From: Candidatus Saccharimonadota bacterium
GTDB lineage: Bacteria; Patescibacteriota; Saccharimonadia; Saccharimonadales; DTSZ01
Assembly (NCBI GenBank): GCA_012965045.1
Contig: DTSZ01000001.1
Location: 591,629 to 655,628 of the forward strand
Direction: 5' to 3'
DNA: 64,000 nt
The position numbers and the translations under genes are program-made. A model generated the notes under the pieces. That model saw only the letters and a list, made by a program, of their open reading frames with translations, did no database searches and was not told where the DNA came from. Below are positions 21,291 through 58,884 of this stretch, piece after piece; the stretch's first letter is position 1, and every line of letters starts with the position of its first letter.

Positions 21291-21856
21291 GCTAGCTCCT
21301 TCAAAGCCGCTCGTATTCGGGCCTCGGTACCTTCAGCGTCAACATTAGCTAGGGCTTGCAAGGCCTGCTGAGAACTATAGCCAAGTGCGATCAACGCTTG
21401 CAGCGCTTCGTCGTTTCCTTGCGAGTTCCCCATTGTAGCTTTTTCGTACAAGACATCTTGGCCTAATTTATCGCGCAACTCTACAACAACACGCTCGGCG
21501 GTTTTTTTGCCAACTCCGCTGGCGCCAGAAATGTAGGCATTATTACCGCTCGCAATAGCTTGCTTGATTGAGGCAACAGGACCTAAGTCAAGGATAGCTA
21601 ACCCTGCTTTTGGGCCAATTCCGTTAATACTAATTAAATCTTCGAACAAATTAAGGGCATCGGTGCTGCTAAACCCATATAAATCATGCGCTTTTTCTTG
21701 TATATGCTCGTAAATAAACACCTCAAGTGATTGGGCAAGTTTAATGTGATCAAGGTCTTCTCGGCTGACATGCACGCCGTAACCAACCCCATTAACATTA
21801 ATGGTAACTTTTGATTTTCCAACAAAAACAACAGAGCCTGAAAGATACGAAATCAT
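21287..21856 (-). CDS. ruvA: Holliday junction DNA-binding protein RuvA.
   Basis: MISYLSG start, HhH motifs ([24 protein letters not shown]). Start set at ATG 21856. Confidence 0.9.
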
Positions 21857-21883
21857 GCCCAAAGTATAACAAATATACACTTT

Positions 21884-21909
21884 TTAACGATCGTAAAAAT
21901 TTGTATACT
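21884..21909. repeat. 26-bp direct repeat R1 (TTAACGATCGTAAAAATTTGTATACT) in the ruvA/PaaX-like divergent region.
   Basis: 24 of 26 positions identical to R2 at 22476-22501. Contains the ACGATCGT palindrome. Confidence 0.7.
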
Positions 21910-21915
21910 CTAATC

Positions 21916-22464
21916 ATGTCAACGCGAGCAGCAGACCAAGCCAGTGCTCAAATCCTAAAAACATGCCTTCAGCTATTAAAAGATGCTGGTGGCTTAAGCC
22001 GAGACACGTTAAAAAACACCCTCACAAAACTCGATTTTGACCTATCTAACCGTCTCGTTAATTTACGCGTAAATTCTGTAATTTTGCGGGCTCGATCATC
22101 GCAGTTTATCGAAGAAGAAAATGGTCAATTAACGGTAACCTCTGCCGGTGTACTGCAGCTACAAAAACTAATACGGATCACTGACTTTAAGTTTCTTAAA
22201 AGCCAGCCATGGGACAATAAATGGAGGCTACTAAGTTACGATGTTCCAGAAACCGAACGTCAACTTCGCAATGAACTACGTGCCCTTATTAAGCAAGCGG
22301 ACTTTACTTTATTGCAGCGAAGTCTATGGATTACGCCGTACGCCTGCGAAAAACTCTTAGAAGATTTACTAGACAACTACCCAGATTACGTACAGCTATT
22401 TATCGTCAGCTCCATTAAGGGCGACATGAATTTTAGCGCAAATTTCAAAAACTACATCGACTAA
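21916..22464 (+). CDS. PaaX-like transcriptional regulator.
   Basis: The C-terminal pattern WDNKWRLLSYDVPETERQLRNELRALIKQADFTLLQRSLWITPY matches the PaaX C-domain signature. Confidence 0.6.
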   Translation: MSTRAADQASAQILKTCLQLLKDAGGLSRDTLKNTLTKLDFDLSNRLVNLRVNSVILRARSSQFIEEENGQLTVTSAGVLQLQKLIRITDFKFLKSQPWDNKWRLLSYDVPETERQLRNELRALIKQADFTLLQRSLWITPYACEKLLEDLLDNYPDYVQLFIVSSIKGDMNFSANFKNYID

Positions 22465-22475
22465 CTATACAAAAA

Positions 22476-22501
22476 TTAACGATCGTAAAATTTTGTATAG
22501 T
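22476..22501. repeat. 26-bp direct repeat R2, embedded in a roughly 36-bp palindrome after the PaaX-like gene.
   Basis: ctatacaaaaattaacgatcgtaaaattttgtatag. Confidence 0.7.
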
Positions 22502-22543
22502 CCGAGCGCTGCACCGGTATTGATAATTCAGCGACTGGTTAAT

Positions 22544-25726: not shown

Positions 25727-27406
25727 ATGCATCACGATCTATTTACAGAACTTAGTTTAATTCTCGTTGTAGCGGGAACTGTTTCTGCTGTCATGAAGTT
25801 ACTGAAGCAACCATTAATTATCGGTCATATTTTTACCGGACTACTGCTAGGACCTTATTTACTTAACGCTATAAACTCACCAGACCAAATTAATGAATTA
25901 TCGTCGTTTGGCATTACCTTGCTGCTGTTTATTATTGGCCTGGGCCTAAACCCAAGAGTTATACGCGAAATCGGTAAAGCCGCAATAATTATTGGTCTTG
26001 GGCAGGTAATTTTTACGGCCCTTTTTGGATATGCGATTAGCAATCTACTTGGCTTTACCCCCAAAGAAAGCTTTTATATTGCTATCGCCTTGACCATGAG
26101 CAGCACCATTATTGCGCTTAAAATAATTTCTGACAAACGCGACACCCCCCAGTTATACGCCAAAATAACCACTGGTATTTTGTTAGTTCAAGACCTTGTG
26201 GCAACCATGTTATTAATCGCAGTTGCTGGTATGGGTTCCGGCTCGCTGCCGCTACCTGAGCTTTCAAGAACACTAGGCTGGGCAATTCTGCTTGGTGTTG
26301 GTGTGTACTGTGCTGGGACCTATTTGCTGCCGCGAATTGAAAAATTTATTAGCGATAGTCAAGAATATTTATTTATTTTCTCTGTGGCTTGGGGTTTTGG
26401 TATCGCCAGCTTGTTTTCAATGGCTGGGCTATCAATTGAAGTCGGTGCCTTGTTTGCCGGCGTAGCCCTTGCCGCTCAGCCATATGCCCAGCAAATGAGC
26501 TCTCGCCTCAAGCCACTCCGTGACTTCTTTATTATTATTTTCTTTATTGTTCTTGGCGCTCGACTAGAATTTACAAACCCTGGTGCATTACTTCTTCCGG
26601 GGGTATCGCTTGCGCTATTCGTTCTGTTTGGCAACCCGCTAATTATCATGATAATCATGGGCTTTTTGGGCTACACCAAGAAAACCAGTTTTCGAGCTGG
26701 CCTGAACTTAGCTCAAATCAGCGAGTTTTCATTAGTCCTAATACTTTTGGCACTCGAATATAACCAAATCAGTCAAGAAATTGTTTCAGTTGTAACCATT
26801 GTAGGCCTTATTACAATTGCTGGCAGCACATACATGATGCTCTACGACAACAAACTCTATAGCGTGCTAGAAAAACGTCTTAGCATGTTTGAGCGCAAAA
26901 AAGTACCACTCAAGCAAAAAGAACTTGGCAAATCTCCAGAAATTATATTATTTGGCTATGCGCGTGGCGGGCATGAATTCGTCCGTGGATTTAAAAAGCT
27001 CAAGAAAGACTTTTTAGTTGTTGACTACGACCCAGAAGCGGCCGATGCGCTAAAGAATGCTGGCCTACCACACGCCTACGGCGATGCGTCTGACGCAGAA
27101 TTTTTAGAAGAAATCGATATAGCCCACGCAAAATTAGTTATTTCAACGGTTTTGGACTTTCAAACAAACTTGTTTTTGACCGAATATACTCATAGCCAGA
27201 ACAAACAGGCTATTATTATTGCCCGCAGCGAAAACCCCGAAGAAGCCGCAGAGCTATACGAAATGGGAGCAACGTATGTGATGATGCCGCACTACATCGG
27301 CAGCGAACGAGTCAGCAAAATGATTAGCCGCAATGGTCTGCGAAAAGGAGACTTTACCCCAGCCCGTGAAAAGCACTTACGATATGTGCAACGGCATTTA
27401 GTCTAG
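25727..27406 (+). CDS. CPA2 (Kef-type) cation:proton antiporter with a C-terminal RCK/TrkA-N domain.
   Basis: Roughly 12 TM segments with an Na_H exchanger pattern. IILFGYARGGHEF Rossmann start. Confidence 0.85.
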   Translation: MHHDLFTELSLILVVAGTVSAVMKLLKQPLIIGHIFTGLLLGPYLLNAINSPDQINELSSFGITLLLFIIGLGLNPRVIREIGKAAIIIGLGQVIFTALFGYAISNLLGFTPKESFYIAIALTMSSTIIALKIISDKRDTPQLYAKITTGILLVQDLVATMLLIAVAGMGSGSLPLPELSRTLGWAILLGVGVYCAGTYLLPRIEKFISDSQEYLFIFSVAWGFGIASLFSMAGLSIEVGALFAGVALAAQPYAQQMSSRLKPLRDFFIIIFFIVLGARLEFTNPGALLLPGVSLALFVLFGNPLIIMIIMGFLGYTKKTSFRAGLNLAQISEFSLVLILLALEYNQISQEIVSVVTIVGLITIAGSTYMMLYDNKLYSVLEKRLSMFERKKVPLKQKELGKSPEIILFGYARGGHEFVRGFKKLKKDFLVVDYDPEAADALKNAGLPHAYGDASDAEFLEEIDIAHAKLVISTVLDFQTNLFLTEYTHSQNKQAIIIARSENPEEAAELYEMGATYVMMPHYIGSERVSKMISRNGLRKGDFTPAREKHLRYVQRHLV

Positions 27407-27426
27407 GAAGTTAAAACTATAGGATA

Positions 27427-27608
27427 AGGGGTGTGGTGGGACTCGCCAAAAGTATTTTTCTGGTGAAAAATCTTTTCGATCGTACTCTAGCGCCGGCGCA
27501 CTCCGGTCTTGCGAGAAGCAGACATGCATTTCTCACCCAACTGGGTTCGAGTCATTAAAACTGTCCAATTTAAAACCCGCCAAAAGGCGGGCGTTAAATT
27601 GGAGGGAC
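27427..27608 (-). repeat. Copy B (degenerate, orphan) of the tRNA-linked structured repeat, including its terminator hairpin and a tggaggga tRNA-Lys end fragment.
   Basis: Shares gtgggactcgcc, TCTTGCGA..hairpin..TTTCTCACCC, TAAAACTGTCCAATTTAAAACCCGCC...GGCGGG and AAATTGGAGGG with copy C. No tRNA is adjacent. Confidence 0.6.
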
Positions 27609-27644
27609 GTATGTATCGTTATTGCAACTAAAATAAATCTGCAA

Positions 27645-28151
27645 CTACTCAACGTTAAAAGTTAGAATGTTCGATTCGAAACCTTGCCATTGGAGTTTTG
27701 CTTGATGTTCGCCCGGTGGCAATTTTAATTCGTCACTAAATCCGATGTAATCACTGCTTATATCGTGAGAAAAGTCATCTACCAGCGTAAAAGGGTATTC
27801 ATACGTGATGGTTTTGTTTGAGCCGATATTTATATCTGTAAGCGCATCACCACAGGCATAGTACAGACCAATTGGTTGTTCATTTATATAAAACGTACCC
27901 TCGGTACATGTGGAAGAAAACGTATATGTTTTTGCACTTGTTGTTGGGTTGTTAATGAATGACTTGAAGGTAATTGATTCACCTATTGAATAGATGCTTT
28001 TGTGTAATCCTAGTTGTATATTCAACTCCCCATTCGTAGGTTCAGATACATTCTCATGTTTGACAAGCTTAGTCATTACTAAAAATAAACCAACTCCAGC
28101 TACTATTGCAATCAATAAAGCAATGATAGTAATTTTAACTTTTTTACTCAT
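27645..28151 (-). CDS. Small N-terminally anchored secreted protein (168 aa) lying between repeat copies B and C.
   Basis: N-terminal TM (ITIIALLIAIVAGVGLFLVM). The beta-rich body has weak resemblance to BsuPI-type inhibitor folds, at low certainty. Confidence 0.6.
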   Translation of the reverse strand: MSKKVKITIIALLIAIVAGVGLFLVMTKLVKHENVSEPTNGELNIQLGLHKSIYSIGESITFKSFINNPTTSAKTYTFSSTCTEGTFYINEQPIGLYYACGDALTDINIGSNKTITYEYPFTLVDDFSHDISSDYIGFSDELKLPPGEHQAKLQWQGFESNILTFNVE

Positions 28152-28222
28152 GACTTAACTATAACAAAAATGCTACAACATTAGTTGCGGCATTCTCATT
28201 TGAGTTATGATTTTGACCATAT

Positions 28223-28252
28223 AAAAACACCTACGGCGAGATAGGTGTTTTT
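28223..28252. terminator. Bidirectional terminator hairpin.
   Basis: aaaaacaccta-cggcgaga-taggtgttttt. Confidence 0.65.
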
Positions 28253-28255
28253 ATA

Positions 28256-28441
28256 TGGAGGGTCCAGTGGGACTCGCCCACATTCTGCGGGCCCGAAACT
28301 ACGTCTTTCAAAACAAGTTTTGAAGAGTAAGTTTCCTTGCAAACTGCTCCCAGCAGTTTTCACCCCCGACACTACGTGTCGTGGCTTCGACCCAGTAAAA
28401 CTCTCCAATTTAAAAACCCGCCATTCGGCGGATTCATAAAT
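28256..28441 (-). ncRNA. Copy C of the tRNA-linked structured repeat. It starts behind the tRNA-Lys terminator and ends in an exact 21-nt copy of the tRNA-Lys 3' end (28256-28276).
   Basis: See copy A. Helix 28276-28292 again has an A-C mismatch on plus that becomes G-U on minus. Terminator hairpin ccgcc-attc-ggcgg at 28418-28431. Confidence 0.55.
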
Positions 28442-28518
28442 TGGAGGGTCCAGTGGGACTCGAACCCACGACACCCTGCTTAAAAGGCAGGTGCTCTAAC
28501 CAGCTGAGCTATGGACCC
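28442..28518 (-). tRNA. tRNA-Lys (anticodon TTT), CCA encoded.
   Basis: Hand fold: acceptor GGGTCCA/TGGACCC, anticodon loop CTTTTAA, T-arm GTGGG-TTCGAGT-CCCAC, 77 nt. Confidence 0.95.
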
Positions 28519-28602
28519 TCGTATGTAAAAAGCTACGAGAATAAGAGAATGTAACTTTTACTCACAAAATGCTAGCATGCCACCTCTGTTTTTTCAACTC
28601 TA

Positions 28603-49169: not shown

Positions 49170-49739
49170 ATGAACAAAGATGTCGCCTTAGATTCACTAG
49201 AAGTTGTAATTGATAATTCAATAGTGAATCGAATAACTGAAAGTGAAGCCATAAAAGAACTCCCACAAATTCAGTTAGTTTTGGCTAGCTACAGAGTTTT
49301 GTCATCTTATCGCGACAAAAGATTATTAGAAAAGATTTTGGTATTACTCAATAAAACTAGCTCGCACCAAAAGGAACTTTTTGAAATTTTTGCAAAAACT
49401 CATAACCAAAACCTGTTGCTGGATTATCTCGATCAAGCTGAGGATGAATACAAAGTAAAAGTCACTGGTTCTATATTTAATAATTGGGTAACAGAAAAGC
49501 ATGATCAAAATATACTTATGAGATGCCTTGAGATTTTGCAGAATTTATCCCCAGTGGAAATACGTCAAATAATTAGTAATGATACTTTCGGAAGGTACTT
49601 AGGCGAGAAATTATGTTTGCTTGGTATTTGTACCAGAAATTCAAGAGTTGGACAGTGGGACGGCGGAGATCAAGTAGACTTTCCATTAACAAATTTTGGG
49701 AAAACATTTATCAATTTATCTAAAAATTATACTGAATAA
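49170..49739 (+). CDS. Hypothetical protein (189 aa), an AT-rich orphan.
   Basis: ORF with no motif. A hand count of the first 100 nt gives about 33% G+C, which looks lower than its neighbours by eye. Confidence 0.5.
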   Translation: MNKDVALDSLEVVIDNSIVNRITESEAIKELPQIQLVLASYRVLSSYRDKRLLEKILVLLNKTSSHQKELFEIFAKTHNQNLLLDYLDQAEDEYKVKVTGSIFNNWVTEKHDQNILMRCLEILQNLSPVEIRQIISNDTFGRYLGEKLCLLGICTRNSRVGQWDGGDQVDFPLTNFGKTFINLSKNYTE

Positions 49740-57037: not shown

Positions 57038-57688
57038 ATGATAACAATGAATGAACATGACCTGTTAGATAAACTAGACCACGTATTCAAAGAGCTGATT
57101 TACCCTTTTCATGTGTTGGAACGTGATATACCTTTTCAGTTAAACGGCCAAAGTAACTACAGAAACGAAACCGATACCGAACATTCGTTTACTCTGGCAC
57201 TTGTGTCGATTTTACTCGCACCACACATTGATCCCGCATTAGATATTGGCAAGTGCTGCCAGCTAAGCATAGTGCATGACTTAATCGAGGTTTACGCAGG
57301 CGATACGTCGTTTTGGGCCAACAAAGATTTGCAAGATTCTAAAAAAGAACGTGAAGCGGAAGCTGTTGGTATCATCAAGTCTAAGTTTGGGTCTAGTTTC
57401 CCTAATTTACCTGAACTCATAGATGAATATGAACTAAAAAGCACTAAAGAGGCTCAGTTTATAAGCGCGTTAGATAAGTTTTTAGCTTTAGCTGTACTGC
57501 AAACAAGCAAAAGTAACTATTTTAAAAAGAATAAACTCACTAAAACACAGGTAGAAAAGGAGGTTCTGCTTCGTCACCGTGGTAGAGGCTTAGCCTATGA
57601 GCCTTTTAATTCAGTCTACTTGGCGCAGTTAGAGCGATTTATGAAACAAACTGACTATTTTCATGATGACGAAGCCTCGTCCTCATGA
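57038..57688 (+). CDS. HD-domain phosphohydrolase of the YfbR-like 5'-nucleotidase type.
   Basis: ETDTEHSF...SIVHDLIEVYAGDT, fitting the H..HD..E..D pattern. Confidence 0.7.
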   Translation: MITMNEHDLLDKLDHVFKELIYPFHVLERDIPFQLNGQSNYRNETDTEHSFTLALVSILLAPHIDPALDIGKCCQLSIVHDLIEVYAGDTSFWANKDLQDSKKEREAEAVGIIKSKFGSSFPNLPELIDEYELKSTKEAQFISALDKFLALAVLQTSKSNYFKKNKLTKTQVEKEVLLRHRGRGLAYEPFNSVYLAQLERFMKQTDYFHDDEASSS

Positions 57689-57701
57689 AATACTAGTTAC
57701 T

Positions 57702-58283
57702 ATGGCTTTACCGAATATAAAGAAACTCATTGAACTCCAAGCATTTATTCAGCAACTTAGAGCCGTAAAACGAACGGCGTATATTCCGGGAACTGACGAG
57801 AAAGAAAACGATGTTGATCATAGCTTTAGCCTAGCTGTTACCGCATGGTATATAGCGTCCGGATCTGACAATAACTATGATACCGAGAAAATTCTTCAGT
57901 ATGCGCTGGTGCATGACATGGTAGAAGTTCATGCTGGTGATACCTACTTTTTGGCAGACATATCGACTTTAAACGCCAAAAAAGAAAAAGAAGCAGCTGC
58001 TCTGCGTCAACTAGAGGCGGATTGGCGAGACCAGTTCCCTGAAATGATTCAACGAATTAAGGAATATGAAAATAAACAAACTAAAGAAGCTCGATTTGTA
58101 TATGCGGTTGATAAAATAATGCCCTTAACCATACACGCTAATGACAACTGGCGAACGTGGCGAGAAATGGATGTTGACCCGCACGCAGCGTTTAAAATTA
58201 AGAAAGAAAAACTACCAGTTTCAGAAGAAATTGCTAAATATTTAACTGAAATCGAAGAGCTAATGATGAGCTACGAGAAATAA
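57702..58283 (+). CDS. HD-domain phosphohydrolase, paralog of the preceding gene.
   Basis: ENDVDHSF...ALVHDMVEVHAGDT. Start set at ATG 57702. Confidence 0.7.
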   Translation: MALPNIKKLIELQAFIQQLRAVKRTAYIPGTDEKENDVDHSFSLAVTAWYIASGSDNNYDTEKILQYALVHDMVEVHAGDTYFLADISTLNAKKEKEAAALRQLEADWRDQFPEMIQRIKEYENKQTKEARFVYAVDKIMPLTIHANDNWRTWREMDVDPHAAFKIKKEKLPVSEEIAKYLTEIEELMMSYEK

Positions 58284-58807: not shown

Positions 58808-58884
58808 TGGTAGCGGCAGGTGGAATTGAACCACCGACCTCAGGCTTATGAGTCCTGCGCTCTAACCATCTGAGCTATGCCGCC
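58808..58884 (-). tRNA. tRNA with a CAT anticodon, either elongator Met or lysidine-modified Ile2. CCA encoded.
   Basis: Hand fold: acceptor GGCGGCA/TGCCGCT, anticodon loop CTCATAA, T-arm GGTGG-TTCAATT-CCACC. It lacks the initiator features (no C1-A72 mismatch, no GGG/CCC anticodon stem). Confidence 0.9.

Follow-up and report, generated by a model that had tools for sequence, protein, structure and literature searches.

Genomic islands that occupy tRNA genes through attachment (att) sites of the T-loop class can accrete in tandem, and in Streptococcus thermophilus this includes integrase-less, cis-mobilizable elements (CIME-like elements). Other mobile elements reside in tRNAs as introns, such as the transposing bulge-helix-bulge (BHB) introns of Thermoproteales. 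Saccharibacteria have genomes smaller than 1 Mb and few recognized mobile elements, and their gain of accessory genes is poorly understood. Here, we analyzed a stretch of 64,000 nucleotides (nt) from a Candidatus Saccharibacteria genome (contig DTSZ01000001.1, positions 591,629–655,628, forward strand; hereafter, the window), focusing on positions 27427–28441, a small patchwork located 3′ of a tRNA-Lys(UUU) gene. The patchwork contains two of the three copies of a repeat found in the window. We refer to the 88-nt three-hairpin element within this repeat as the "D core", and to the unit of ~185 nt around it as the "D unit". In our estimate, with a probability of roughly 55%, the locus represents an accretion array composed of D units and a single-gene cassette. 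It presents a recurrent tRNA-anchored architecture in which no integrase was found in cis, combining single-gene cassettes closed by blocks resembling tRNA ends with a widespread structured element, and the D-core family is its most interesting outcome.

The locus resembles the tRNA islands and CIME-like elements in several respects. The inserts lie at a tRNA 3′ end, carry a direct repeat that extends from the T-loop to A76, and leave the tRNA intact. They are stacked and parted by tRNA-end remnants, and their presence varies among relatives. The flanking direct repeat is exact in two of the D units, designated C and A (21/21 nt), reduced to 15/21 nt in the third, B, and degenerate in the cassette; variable presence is accompanied by a deviant base composition. 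Unlike tRNA islands, the locus yielded no integrase, and no recombinase gene was found in the insert. The units comprise only ~185 nt or a single gene, one core accompanies tRNAs of 14 amino-acid identities, and each D unit adds an inverted tRNA half and a structured core exactly at the junction.

ARAGORN and Rfam identified three tRNA genes in the window, all on the minus strand: tRNA-Pro (2475–2551), tRNA-Lys(UUU), and tRNA-Met (58808–58884). On this strand, the array reads tRNA-Lys, unit C, a terminator, a cassette carrying an open reading frame (ORF) of 168 amino acids (aa; ORF168) with a 31-nt end block, and unit B (Table 1). The original prediction, made from the sequence letters, had listed the tRNA-Lys, a 21-nt tRNA-end copy, shared sequence blocks, a terminator, the 168-aa ORF, and copy B, and we found all of them. 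It had also described a third copy. We confirmed three copies, with C adjoining tRNA-Lys, B beyond ORF168, and A located 3′ of tRNA-Pro; the ends of A derive from tRNA-Pro and not from tRNA-Lys.

Units A and C share one layout. Read along the tRNA (minus) strand, a D unit consists of a terminator, a degenerate inverted 3′ half of the cognate tRNA, a short loop, a sense copy of tRNA nt ~44–53, the D core, and a sense copy of nt 55/56–76, so that the D core is placed where T54/T55 of the T-loop would fall. Both units include an exact sense copy of C56–A76, which in A (2286–2306 = 2475–2495) is of tRNA-Pro origin. The inverted and sense pieces track the identity of the neighboring tRNA (Pro in A, Lys in B and C). 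In the 5′ part of unit C, the inverted piece corresponds to tRNA-Lys nt ~44–76 (28378–28407) and the sense piece, nt ~44–53, reads GTGTCGGGGG; together they form the hairpin H1 (CGACAC-GTA-GTGTCG). The tRNA 3′ half, the terminator, and the inverted copy constitute one long imperfect palindrome with the terminator at its tip, as indicated by the minimum-free-energy fold and an inverted self-match (28474–28380). The 21-nt tRNA-Lys end copy of unit C overlaps the last base of hairpin H4. The terminator-like hairpin beyond this copy resembles the sequence directly 3′ of tRNA-Lys in relatives, and a homologous hairpin is present at the same position in L211, one of the fetched comparison loci and contigs, which are denoted by L numbers throughout. 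A covariance model of the D core (R1) assigned 101 bits to C, 97 bits to A, and 6.6 bits (E ~10) to B. Beyond unit A, at 2250–2290, we observed a further degenerate tRNA-Pro 3′-end fragment, split by an H4-like hairpin (GCCTGCC-TGCCGCA-GGTAGG) in the opposite orientation, possibly the trace left by a core that is older or was excised.

Table 1. Positions of the array components and related features. Coordinates refer to the window unless an L number is given.
Feature	Position	Strand	Basis or remark
tRNA-Lys(UUU), intact, array anchor	28442–28518	minus	ARAGORN; Rfam tRNA 73.9 bits
Intrinsic-terminator hairpin directly after tRNA-Lys	28412–28441 (stem CCGCC/GGCGG at 28418–28431)	minus	minimum-free-energy fold
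Unit C, overall	28256–28441	minus	adjoins tRNA-Lys
Unit C, 5′ part	28364–28411	minus	direct sequence reading; same layout in 35 'up'-type metagenomic loci
Unit C, D core, 88 nt, hairpins H2, H3, H4	28275–28363	minus	covariance model R1, 101.4 bits, E = 8.5e-23
Exact 21-nt copy of tRNA-Lys C56–A76	28256–28276	minus	string match to 28442–28462
Second terminator-like hairpin (AAAAACACCTA...TAGGTGTTTTT)	28219–28256	minus	follows distal tRNA-end copy of C
ORF168, 168 aa, predicted N-terminal membrane anchor and BsuPI-like immunoglobulin (Ig) beta-sandwich	27645–28151	minus	ORF, AlphaFold2 (AF2), Foldseek, Pfam
31-nt cassette-end block TAGTTGCAATAACGATACATACGTCCCTCCA, last 7 nt CCCTCCA = tRNA-Lys end	27600–27630	minus	recurs in L219, L003 (x2), L173 (x2)
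Unit B, decayed paralogue of C	27427–27599	minus	alignments, coordinates, covariance model 6.6 bits
Unit A	2286–2474	minus	3′ of tRNA-Pro; BLASTN recovery, 72% over 113 nt
Unit A, terminator	2443–2472	minus	
Unit A, inverted tRNA-Pro fragment	2418–2435	minus	
Unit A, D core	2305–2395	minus	
Nested D core within D core	L189:93–254; L165:536–697; L166:1200–1360; L150:208–367		

Unit B is a decayed D unit of the tRNA-Lys type that is now separated from the tRNA. B and C agree in 75% of the alignment columns, and the best BLASTN segment shows 79% identity over 67 nt (E = 4e-9). The 16-mer TAAAACTSTCCAATTT occurs only at 27556–27571 and 28396–28411 (shuffle expectation 0.21; none of 100 shuffles contained two or more matches), and the 12-mer GTGGGACTCGCC only at 27436–27447 and 28267–28278 (shuffle expectation 0.05). 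B contains a terminator-like hairpin (27575–27592, supported by the minimum-free-energy fold; terminator proper at 27576–27591) and an inverted copy of the tRNA-Lys 3′ half (27542–27567) that includes 12/12 bases of GACTCGAACCCA. The junction and the first ~28 nt of the D core (27508–27536, GTGAGAAATGC..TTCTCGCAAG) and a T-arm/acceptor remnant (27428–27447; 15/21 nt) are also retained. The score of only 6.6 bits implies that the middle and 3′ hairpins were lost. The earlier statement that copy B lacks the middle hairpins and abuts no tRNA is thus borne out, as ARAGORN detected none there. A search of all fetched loci for a homologue of the diverged middle of B (27446–27510) found none. Two details of the original prediction required revision. 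The block TTTCTCACCC is the junction between the copy of tRNA nt 44–53 and the 5′ end of the core. The fragment tggaggga exists, but at 27600–27607 instead of 27601–27608.

The gene between the two D units is annotated as 'TPA: hypothetical protein EYO12_03175 [Candidatus Saccharibacteria bacterium]'. A hydrophobic helix was predicted at residues 3–27 of its product, in agreement with the anchored 168-aa protein proposed earlier. A word-based search retrieved only two homologues (66% and 60% identity), and a profile search of 1.84 billion representatives retrieved 44 clusters, 22 of them at E ≤ 1e-10, all ~150–190 aa long. Pfam BsuPI (PF12690, intracellular proteinase inhibitor) matched 14 of 25 family members, and the window protein itself remained below the threshold. 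The AF2 model built from 25 sequences (predicted local distance difference test score (pLDDT) 88.4; an earlier model from 3 sequences, with pLDDT 51.9, was not used) consists of a transmembrane helix followed by a beta-sandwich. Its best whole-domain match by Foldseek was Bacillus subtilis BsuPI (PDB 3ISY; E = 1.3e-4; target-normalized template modeling (TM) score 0.71). According to this model, the ORF168 product is a membrane-anchored, BsuPI-like Ig-fold protein. The G+C content (GC) of ORF168 is 35.7%, as compared with 42.9 ± 2.8% over 59 ORFs of the window (z = -2.6; second lowest), and ORF168 is a rare accessory gene. The composition shift and the homologues, both of which had been named as checks, were therefore found. 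The original prediction regarded the protein as cargo of the repeat unit; ORF168 is not demonstrably cargo, and is best seen as a separate cassette between two D units.

The cassette is closed by the 31-nt block, in which the match to the tRNA-Lys end is degenerate (CCCTCCA and a few further bases). This block recurs with different genes. In L219, where the array starts at tRNA-Lys(CUU), a near-identical block closes an unrelated 159-aa gene after a tRNA-Lys-type D unit. In L003, the block lies on both sides of an ORF168 homologue, with the left copy directly after a deaminase gene. In L173, tRNA-Lys(CUU) is succeeded by a unit with a different T-loop insert, termed 'E2', and then by an aldo/keto reductase gene, a first copy of the block, a small ORF in reverse orientation, a second copy preceded by the same leader, and finally a methyltransferase-like gene. 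These recurrences indicate that such arrays are recurrent in the lineage: single-gene cassettes and small T-loop-insert units, parted by tRNA-Lys 3′-end remnants, are a recurrent architecture there. The E2 insert (L173:600–2750, minus strand; core ..GGTCACGCACAGAAGCTTGCTTCGAGCATGACCTGCAGG..) is unrelated to the D core. It occupies the T-loop of partial tRNA-Lys and tRNA-Arg 3′ copies and repeats the D-unit layout (terminator, antisense piece, insert, tRNA-end copy), with only two copies found among the fetched loci; more than one element family may use the T-loop niche.

These arrays are comparable to integron cassettes, in that single, mostly unrelated genes are each closed by a short, conserved block resembling a recombination site, and folded single strands may be involved. 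Unlike in integrons, the block comprises 31 nt, ends with a tRNA terminus, and lacks an attC-type imperfect palindrome; a tRNA gene serves as the anchor of the array, and tRNA-Lys is where the arrays begin. Neither intI nor attI was seen.

Relatives differ in the segment between the antiporter gene and tRNA-Lys. In the closest relative, L005 (antiporter 75% identical, tRNA-Lys identical), this segment contains a Mur-ligase gene and neither repeats nor ORF168. L211 possesses the orthologue of unit C and its terminator, followed by different DNA without ORF168. The variable presence of the 168-aa gene, which had been suggested as a check, is therefore observed in both loci.

To examine the distribution of the D core, we scanned Joint Genome Institute (JGI) metagenomes with a 23-base gapped pattern taken from the positions shared by A and C (GCAAGGAAAC N7-11 AAAAC N12-22 AGTTTCGG), and obtained 94 metagenomic loci. 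The rough chance estimate was ~2, and three or more of the matches look like chance. A scan of genome contigs with TAAATTGGANAGTTTTA produced at least 120 chance matches in unrelated phyla, none of which extended by BLAST; this pattern was too unspecific. Seventy-five distinct cores aligned over 89 positions. RNAalifold proposed three helices with 29 base pairs, 15 of which showed compensatory double changes. The alignment cells at paired positions were paired in 97.8% of cases, as compared with 82.7% in shuffles and ~45% or less in slid controls, and 316 cells were changed on both sides, as compared with 96 in shuffles. For every covariation measure, none of 500 shuffles reached the observed value. 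The search pattern itself fixed GCAAGGAAAC, AAAAC, and AGTTTCGG as invariant, but did not impose the covariation of the stems. In 69 of the 75 sequences, H4 retains a G:U pair, which identifies the folded strand as the tRNA-sense strand; an RNA or a single-stranded DNA of this sense would fit.

In 541 kb of D-bearing loci, R1 yielded 117 matches at E ≤ 1e-3, with up to three per locus. It yielded none in the relatives L005, L006, and L008, or in L003 and L004. Named proteins place the D-bearing loci in Saccharimonadia, and L177 apparently holds a fourth unit of the genome to which the window belongs. One D-bearing contig of 359 kb (L181) contains a threonyl-tRNA synthetase (ThrRS) annotated as coming from a 'Verrucomicrobiae bacterium' metagenome-assembled genome, which means either a family wider than Saccharibacteria or a mislabeled bin. 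Rfam 15 matched only tRNAs in the window and in 11 D-bearing loci, with matches at E ≤ 10 in 27300–28600 amounting to noise, and a full-text literature search retrieved no description of the D core or its units. The family is apparently undescribed, as it is absent from Rfam 15 and from the literature searched.

Several candidate identities were tried and rejected. A transfer-messenger RNA (tmRNA) or a tRNA-like RNA with a CCA end was not detected by ARAGORN or Rfam, and the apparent T-arm is a copy of the neighboring tRNA 3′ end that varies with the tRNA. A guide RNA, composed of a scaffold similar to omega-RNA or CRISPR RNA (crRNA) and a 21-nt guide, was set aside because some units (the 'down' type described below) retain no more than 8–12 nt of tRNA sequence beyond the 3′ side of the core and neither TnpB nor Cas genes are linked. 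An autonomous version, with the core halves split by an ORF, was not found either; R1 returned only full-length matches or matches cut by a contig end. A viral origin was rejected, since the core pattern had no match among the IMG/VR viral contigs.

A tRNA gene on the same strand was present within 260 nt of the core in 57 of 96 oriented extracts, and these tRNAs covered 14 amino-acid identities. We distinguished two layouts. In the 'up' type (35 loci), to which A and C correspond, an intact tRNA lies ~100 nt upstream of the core, and in most cases the tRNA 3′-end copy starts 16 nt after the pattern. Approximately 19 of the 35 loci contain an exact copy of 21–22 nt that starts at T55 or C56 and ends at A76. 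In the 'down' type, tRNA nt 1–53 are followed by the D core, nt 55/56 to ~62–67, a short inverted T-arm piece, a spacer, and the intact tRNA. The main insertion site is the T-loop. The D-loop (tRNA-Glu and tRNA-Gly copies) and the anticodon loop (tRNA-Pro(GGG) copies, 37|39) are sometimes occupied, and one pseudo-tRNA-Leu holds two D cores. A hairpin loop unrelated to tRNA (GAGCCTCCAG-AGGGGGTGGGCACCG-CTGGAGGCTC) also holds a D core (L203:1380–1580, and L132, L136, and L175), and a partial duplicate of this hairpin adjoins the intact copy. Furthermore, D cores are nested within each other, with the second core located at GG|TC in the H4 5′ arm of the first, where the junction rule matches that of tRNA T-loops. 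Without exception, the left junction reads ...G|UGAGAA, with no longer motif evident, and the outermost H4 pair uses the T55 or C56 of the target itself, forming G:U in 30 sequences and G:C in 41. The D-core ends (GUGAGAA... and ...GUGACC) are not inverted repeats, and the junctions replace 1–2 nt without a short duplication. The D units at tRNA-Arg(UCU) are near-identical in L171, L163, L198, and L149. In L171, however, the tRNA-end copy continues past the shared T-stem with the acceptor end of another tRNA (..CCCTCTTGAGCACCA), which suggests recombination between tRNA 3′ segments.

Direct repeats extending from the T-loop to the 3′ end of the tRNA are reportedly also characteristic of the T-loop class of att sites that Williams is said to have described in 2002. 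On this ground, the units might be decayed classical integrase islands or prophages in the T-loop-to-3′-end att sites of tRNA-Lys and tRNA-Pro, deleted down to the att arms. We consider this very improbable. Independent deletions would not yield ~100 units all of the same ~185-nt size and boundaries, the cores are homologous although att cores differ among the 14 tRNA identities, and neither integrase remnants nor matches to the core pattern in viral contigs were found.

The palindromic anatomy of unit C bears on another explanation, in which B and C arose purely locally by fold-back or tandem duplication 3′ of tRNA-Lys, for instance through a template switch at the terminator hairpin. An unrelated event would then have placed ORF168 between the copies, and no site-specific process at the tRNA end would be involved. 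The succession of sense, inverted, and sense tRNA 3′ halves with the terminator at the palindrome tip resembles template-switch products, the CCCTCCA-ATTTA-terminator prefix is common to B and C, and a duplication in L146 runs past the tRNA end into the terminator. However, tRNAs of 14 identities, from many organisms, are accompanied by the same core with the same single-nucleotide junctions, the genes associated with the recurring cassette-end block differ from genome to genome, and the exact copies in ~19 of the 35 'up' loci end precisely at A76, which renders a purely local origin unlikely.

The D core is comparable to small elements resembling miniature inverted-repeat transposable elements (MITEs) that reside in RNA or protein genes, such as the Rickettsia palindromic elements, and to the palindrome-associated transposable elements (PATEs) derived from IS200/IS605, in being small, hairpin-rich, non-coding, and multi-copy, with nested insertions. 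As in IS200/IS605 elements, terminal inverted repeats and short target duplications are absent. PATEs carry subterminal hairpins and insert 3′ of a fixed tetra- or pentanucleotide; the D core has hairpins with strand-specific G:U(T) pairs, and its left junction reads ...G|T with no longer motif evident. The terminal inverted repeats and short fixed target duplication of MITEs are not found in the D core. Unlike MITEs and PATEs, the D core enters tRNA-like hairpin loops, forms its last H4 pair with a nucleotide of the target, and is accompanied by partial target duplication in both sense and antisense, and neither the Y1 transposase (Y1_Tnp) nor TnpB was present among the proteins scanned.

Mobile tRNA introns are likewise structured elements at precise tRNA positions, including loops, and the group I cases belong to the same phylum. 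The nearest paper describes group I introns at position 35/36 of Patescibacteria tRNAs (PMC13011429), which are different from the D core. Unlike these introns, the D core is, with 88 nt, too small for group I, and its hosts are truncated pseudo-tRNAs beside an intact gene. Deletion of the core produced a complete, junction-spanning tRNA in 1 of 96 extracts (216 splice variants per extract), and Rfam gave no Intron_gpI match. We therefore rejected a tRNA intron; the D core is not an ordinary intron.

The strong and strand-specific covariation raises the question of whether D units are resident non-coding RNA (ncRNA) genes, namely functional small RNAs that are stabilized or processed via their tRNA-like flanks or that act on the cognate tRNA. 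Such genes would be inherited with the tRNA loci and occasionally duplicated, with B as a pseudogene and ORF168 as an unrelated insertion. Terminator-like hairpins follow the units, 'down' units are situated in the 5′ leader of an intact tRNA, with which they would be co-transcribed, no mobility gene occurs in cis, and the junction nucleotides GCAAGGAAAC / AGUUUCGG(G) are conserved, although the invariance of the former was set by the search pattern. On the other hand, nested D cores, two cores in one pseudo-tRNA, several insertion sites, three-copy arrays, and the lack of copies in close relatives are what an element that proliferates typically shows. Truncation of the tRNA-derived flanks takes various forms, and removal of the D core restores a tRNA in only the single extract mentioned above. 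We regard a purely resident function as rather doubtful, and a resident ncRNA role may coexist with mobility of the D core.

From the nested copies, the multiple insertion sites, the arrays, and the patchy distribution, we argue that the D core proliferates. From the covariation and the strand-specific G:U pairs, we further argue that its active form is a folded single strand, either RNA or DNA. We tentatively propose that the D core might represent a new class of protein-less mobile structured element in Saccharibacteria, which would enter tRNA-like loops (T-, D-, and anticodon loops) with single-nucleotide precision via an RNA or single-stranded DNA intermediate. Such an element might use its own fold, through a ribozyme-like or guide-like action, or an unrecognized host enzyme. 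The insertion and repair products would create sense and antisense partial tRNA duplications and seed cassette arrays at tRNA genes.

For the accretion array, we envisage growth by repeated recombination at the T-loop-to-3′-end segment of the tRNA gene. Each incoming piece would bring a replacement tRNA 3′ end, so that the tRNA stays intact, and the displaced older 3′ end would be left as a remnant further out. The responsible factor would act in trans. The D core would most likely be non-autonomous, selfish or semi-domesticated, entering tRNA-like hairpin loops through a single-stranded DNA or RNA intermediate, and would survive only in partial tRNA copies beside the functional gene. Campbell-type recombination in the T-loop-to-3′-end segment would yield both the 'up' and 'down' layouts while keeping the tRNA intact. 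Fold-back template switching at the terminator hairpin explains the sense/antisense/sense triplication equally well.

Several observations weigh against this accretion array. Pfam searches of the locus, of 35 window proteins, and of the L173 and L219 arrays revealed neither an integrase nor a transposase or reverse transcriptase; what they did recover includes RecA, RecX, pilus genes, chaperones, and an NYN-domain protein. No protein family recurs near the D cores, the maximum being 7 of 94 loci. A simple integrase model does not explain the inverted tRNA-half copy. In L146, the sequence after both tRNA-end copies is identical, which fits a local duplication as well as foreign integration. The identity of B and C is only 75%, so that the events are old or the units come from different sources. 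The decay of the remnants is not monotonic with distance from the tRNA, as the T-arm of B retains 15/21 nt and the cassette block ~8. Finally, a strict pair of filled and empty alleles with identical flanks was not obtained; hence, Campbell-type recombination and template switching are not discriminated, and we infer the insertion boundaries and the mobility, as well as the order of events and the recombination mechanism, from sequence comparison. The anatomy, the D-core family with its covariation and tRNA linkage, the nested and multi-site insertions, the variable presence among relatives, and the recurrence of the cassette-end block are shown by the data themselves.

With these points taken into account, serial accretion at tRNA-Lys is plausible, and neither chance similarity nor a single classical island accounts for the data as well as successive additions at a regenerating tRNA 3′ end. 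This part of the original prediction thus stands in modified form. The variable segment, the L211 arrangement, the GC shift, and the recurring block agree with it, but the repeats are D units and not island ends, and no recombinase was found among the proteins scanned.

If the D core is mobile, it would represent a new means of targeting tRNA genes without impairing them, and would be a contributor to genome plasticity in bacteria of the candidate phyla radiation. If it is a resident RNA, it constitutes an abundant, conserved, and uncatalogued RNA family. In either case, annotation is affected, since D units give rise to tRNA-fragment matches and spurious small ORFs. Three such ORFs, of 89, 64, and 67 aa, cross unit C and the tRNA (28205–28474 and 28245–28439 in the window, and L001:8433–8682, respectively). 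One spurious ORF across unit C and the tRNA is present in public gene calls, which means that D units contaminate protein databases.

Elsewhere in the window, two 40-nt palindromic copies with 83% identity (21871–21910 and 22463–22502; A.TATACA...AACGATCGT...TGTATA) flank a PaaX_M-like regulator ORF (21811–22464) and look like operator sites. A further accessory gene may be the 189-aa ORF at 49170–49739, whose GC is the lowest in the window (32.8%) and which lacks a Pfam match. Two adjoining paralogous HD-domain genes (YfbR-like 5′-deoxynucleotidase) are located at 57038–58283, just downstream of the tRNA-Met region.

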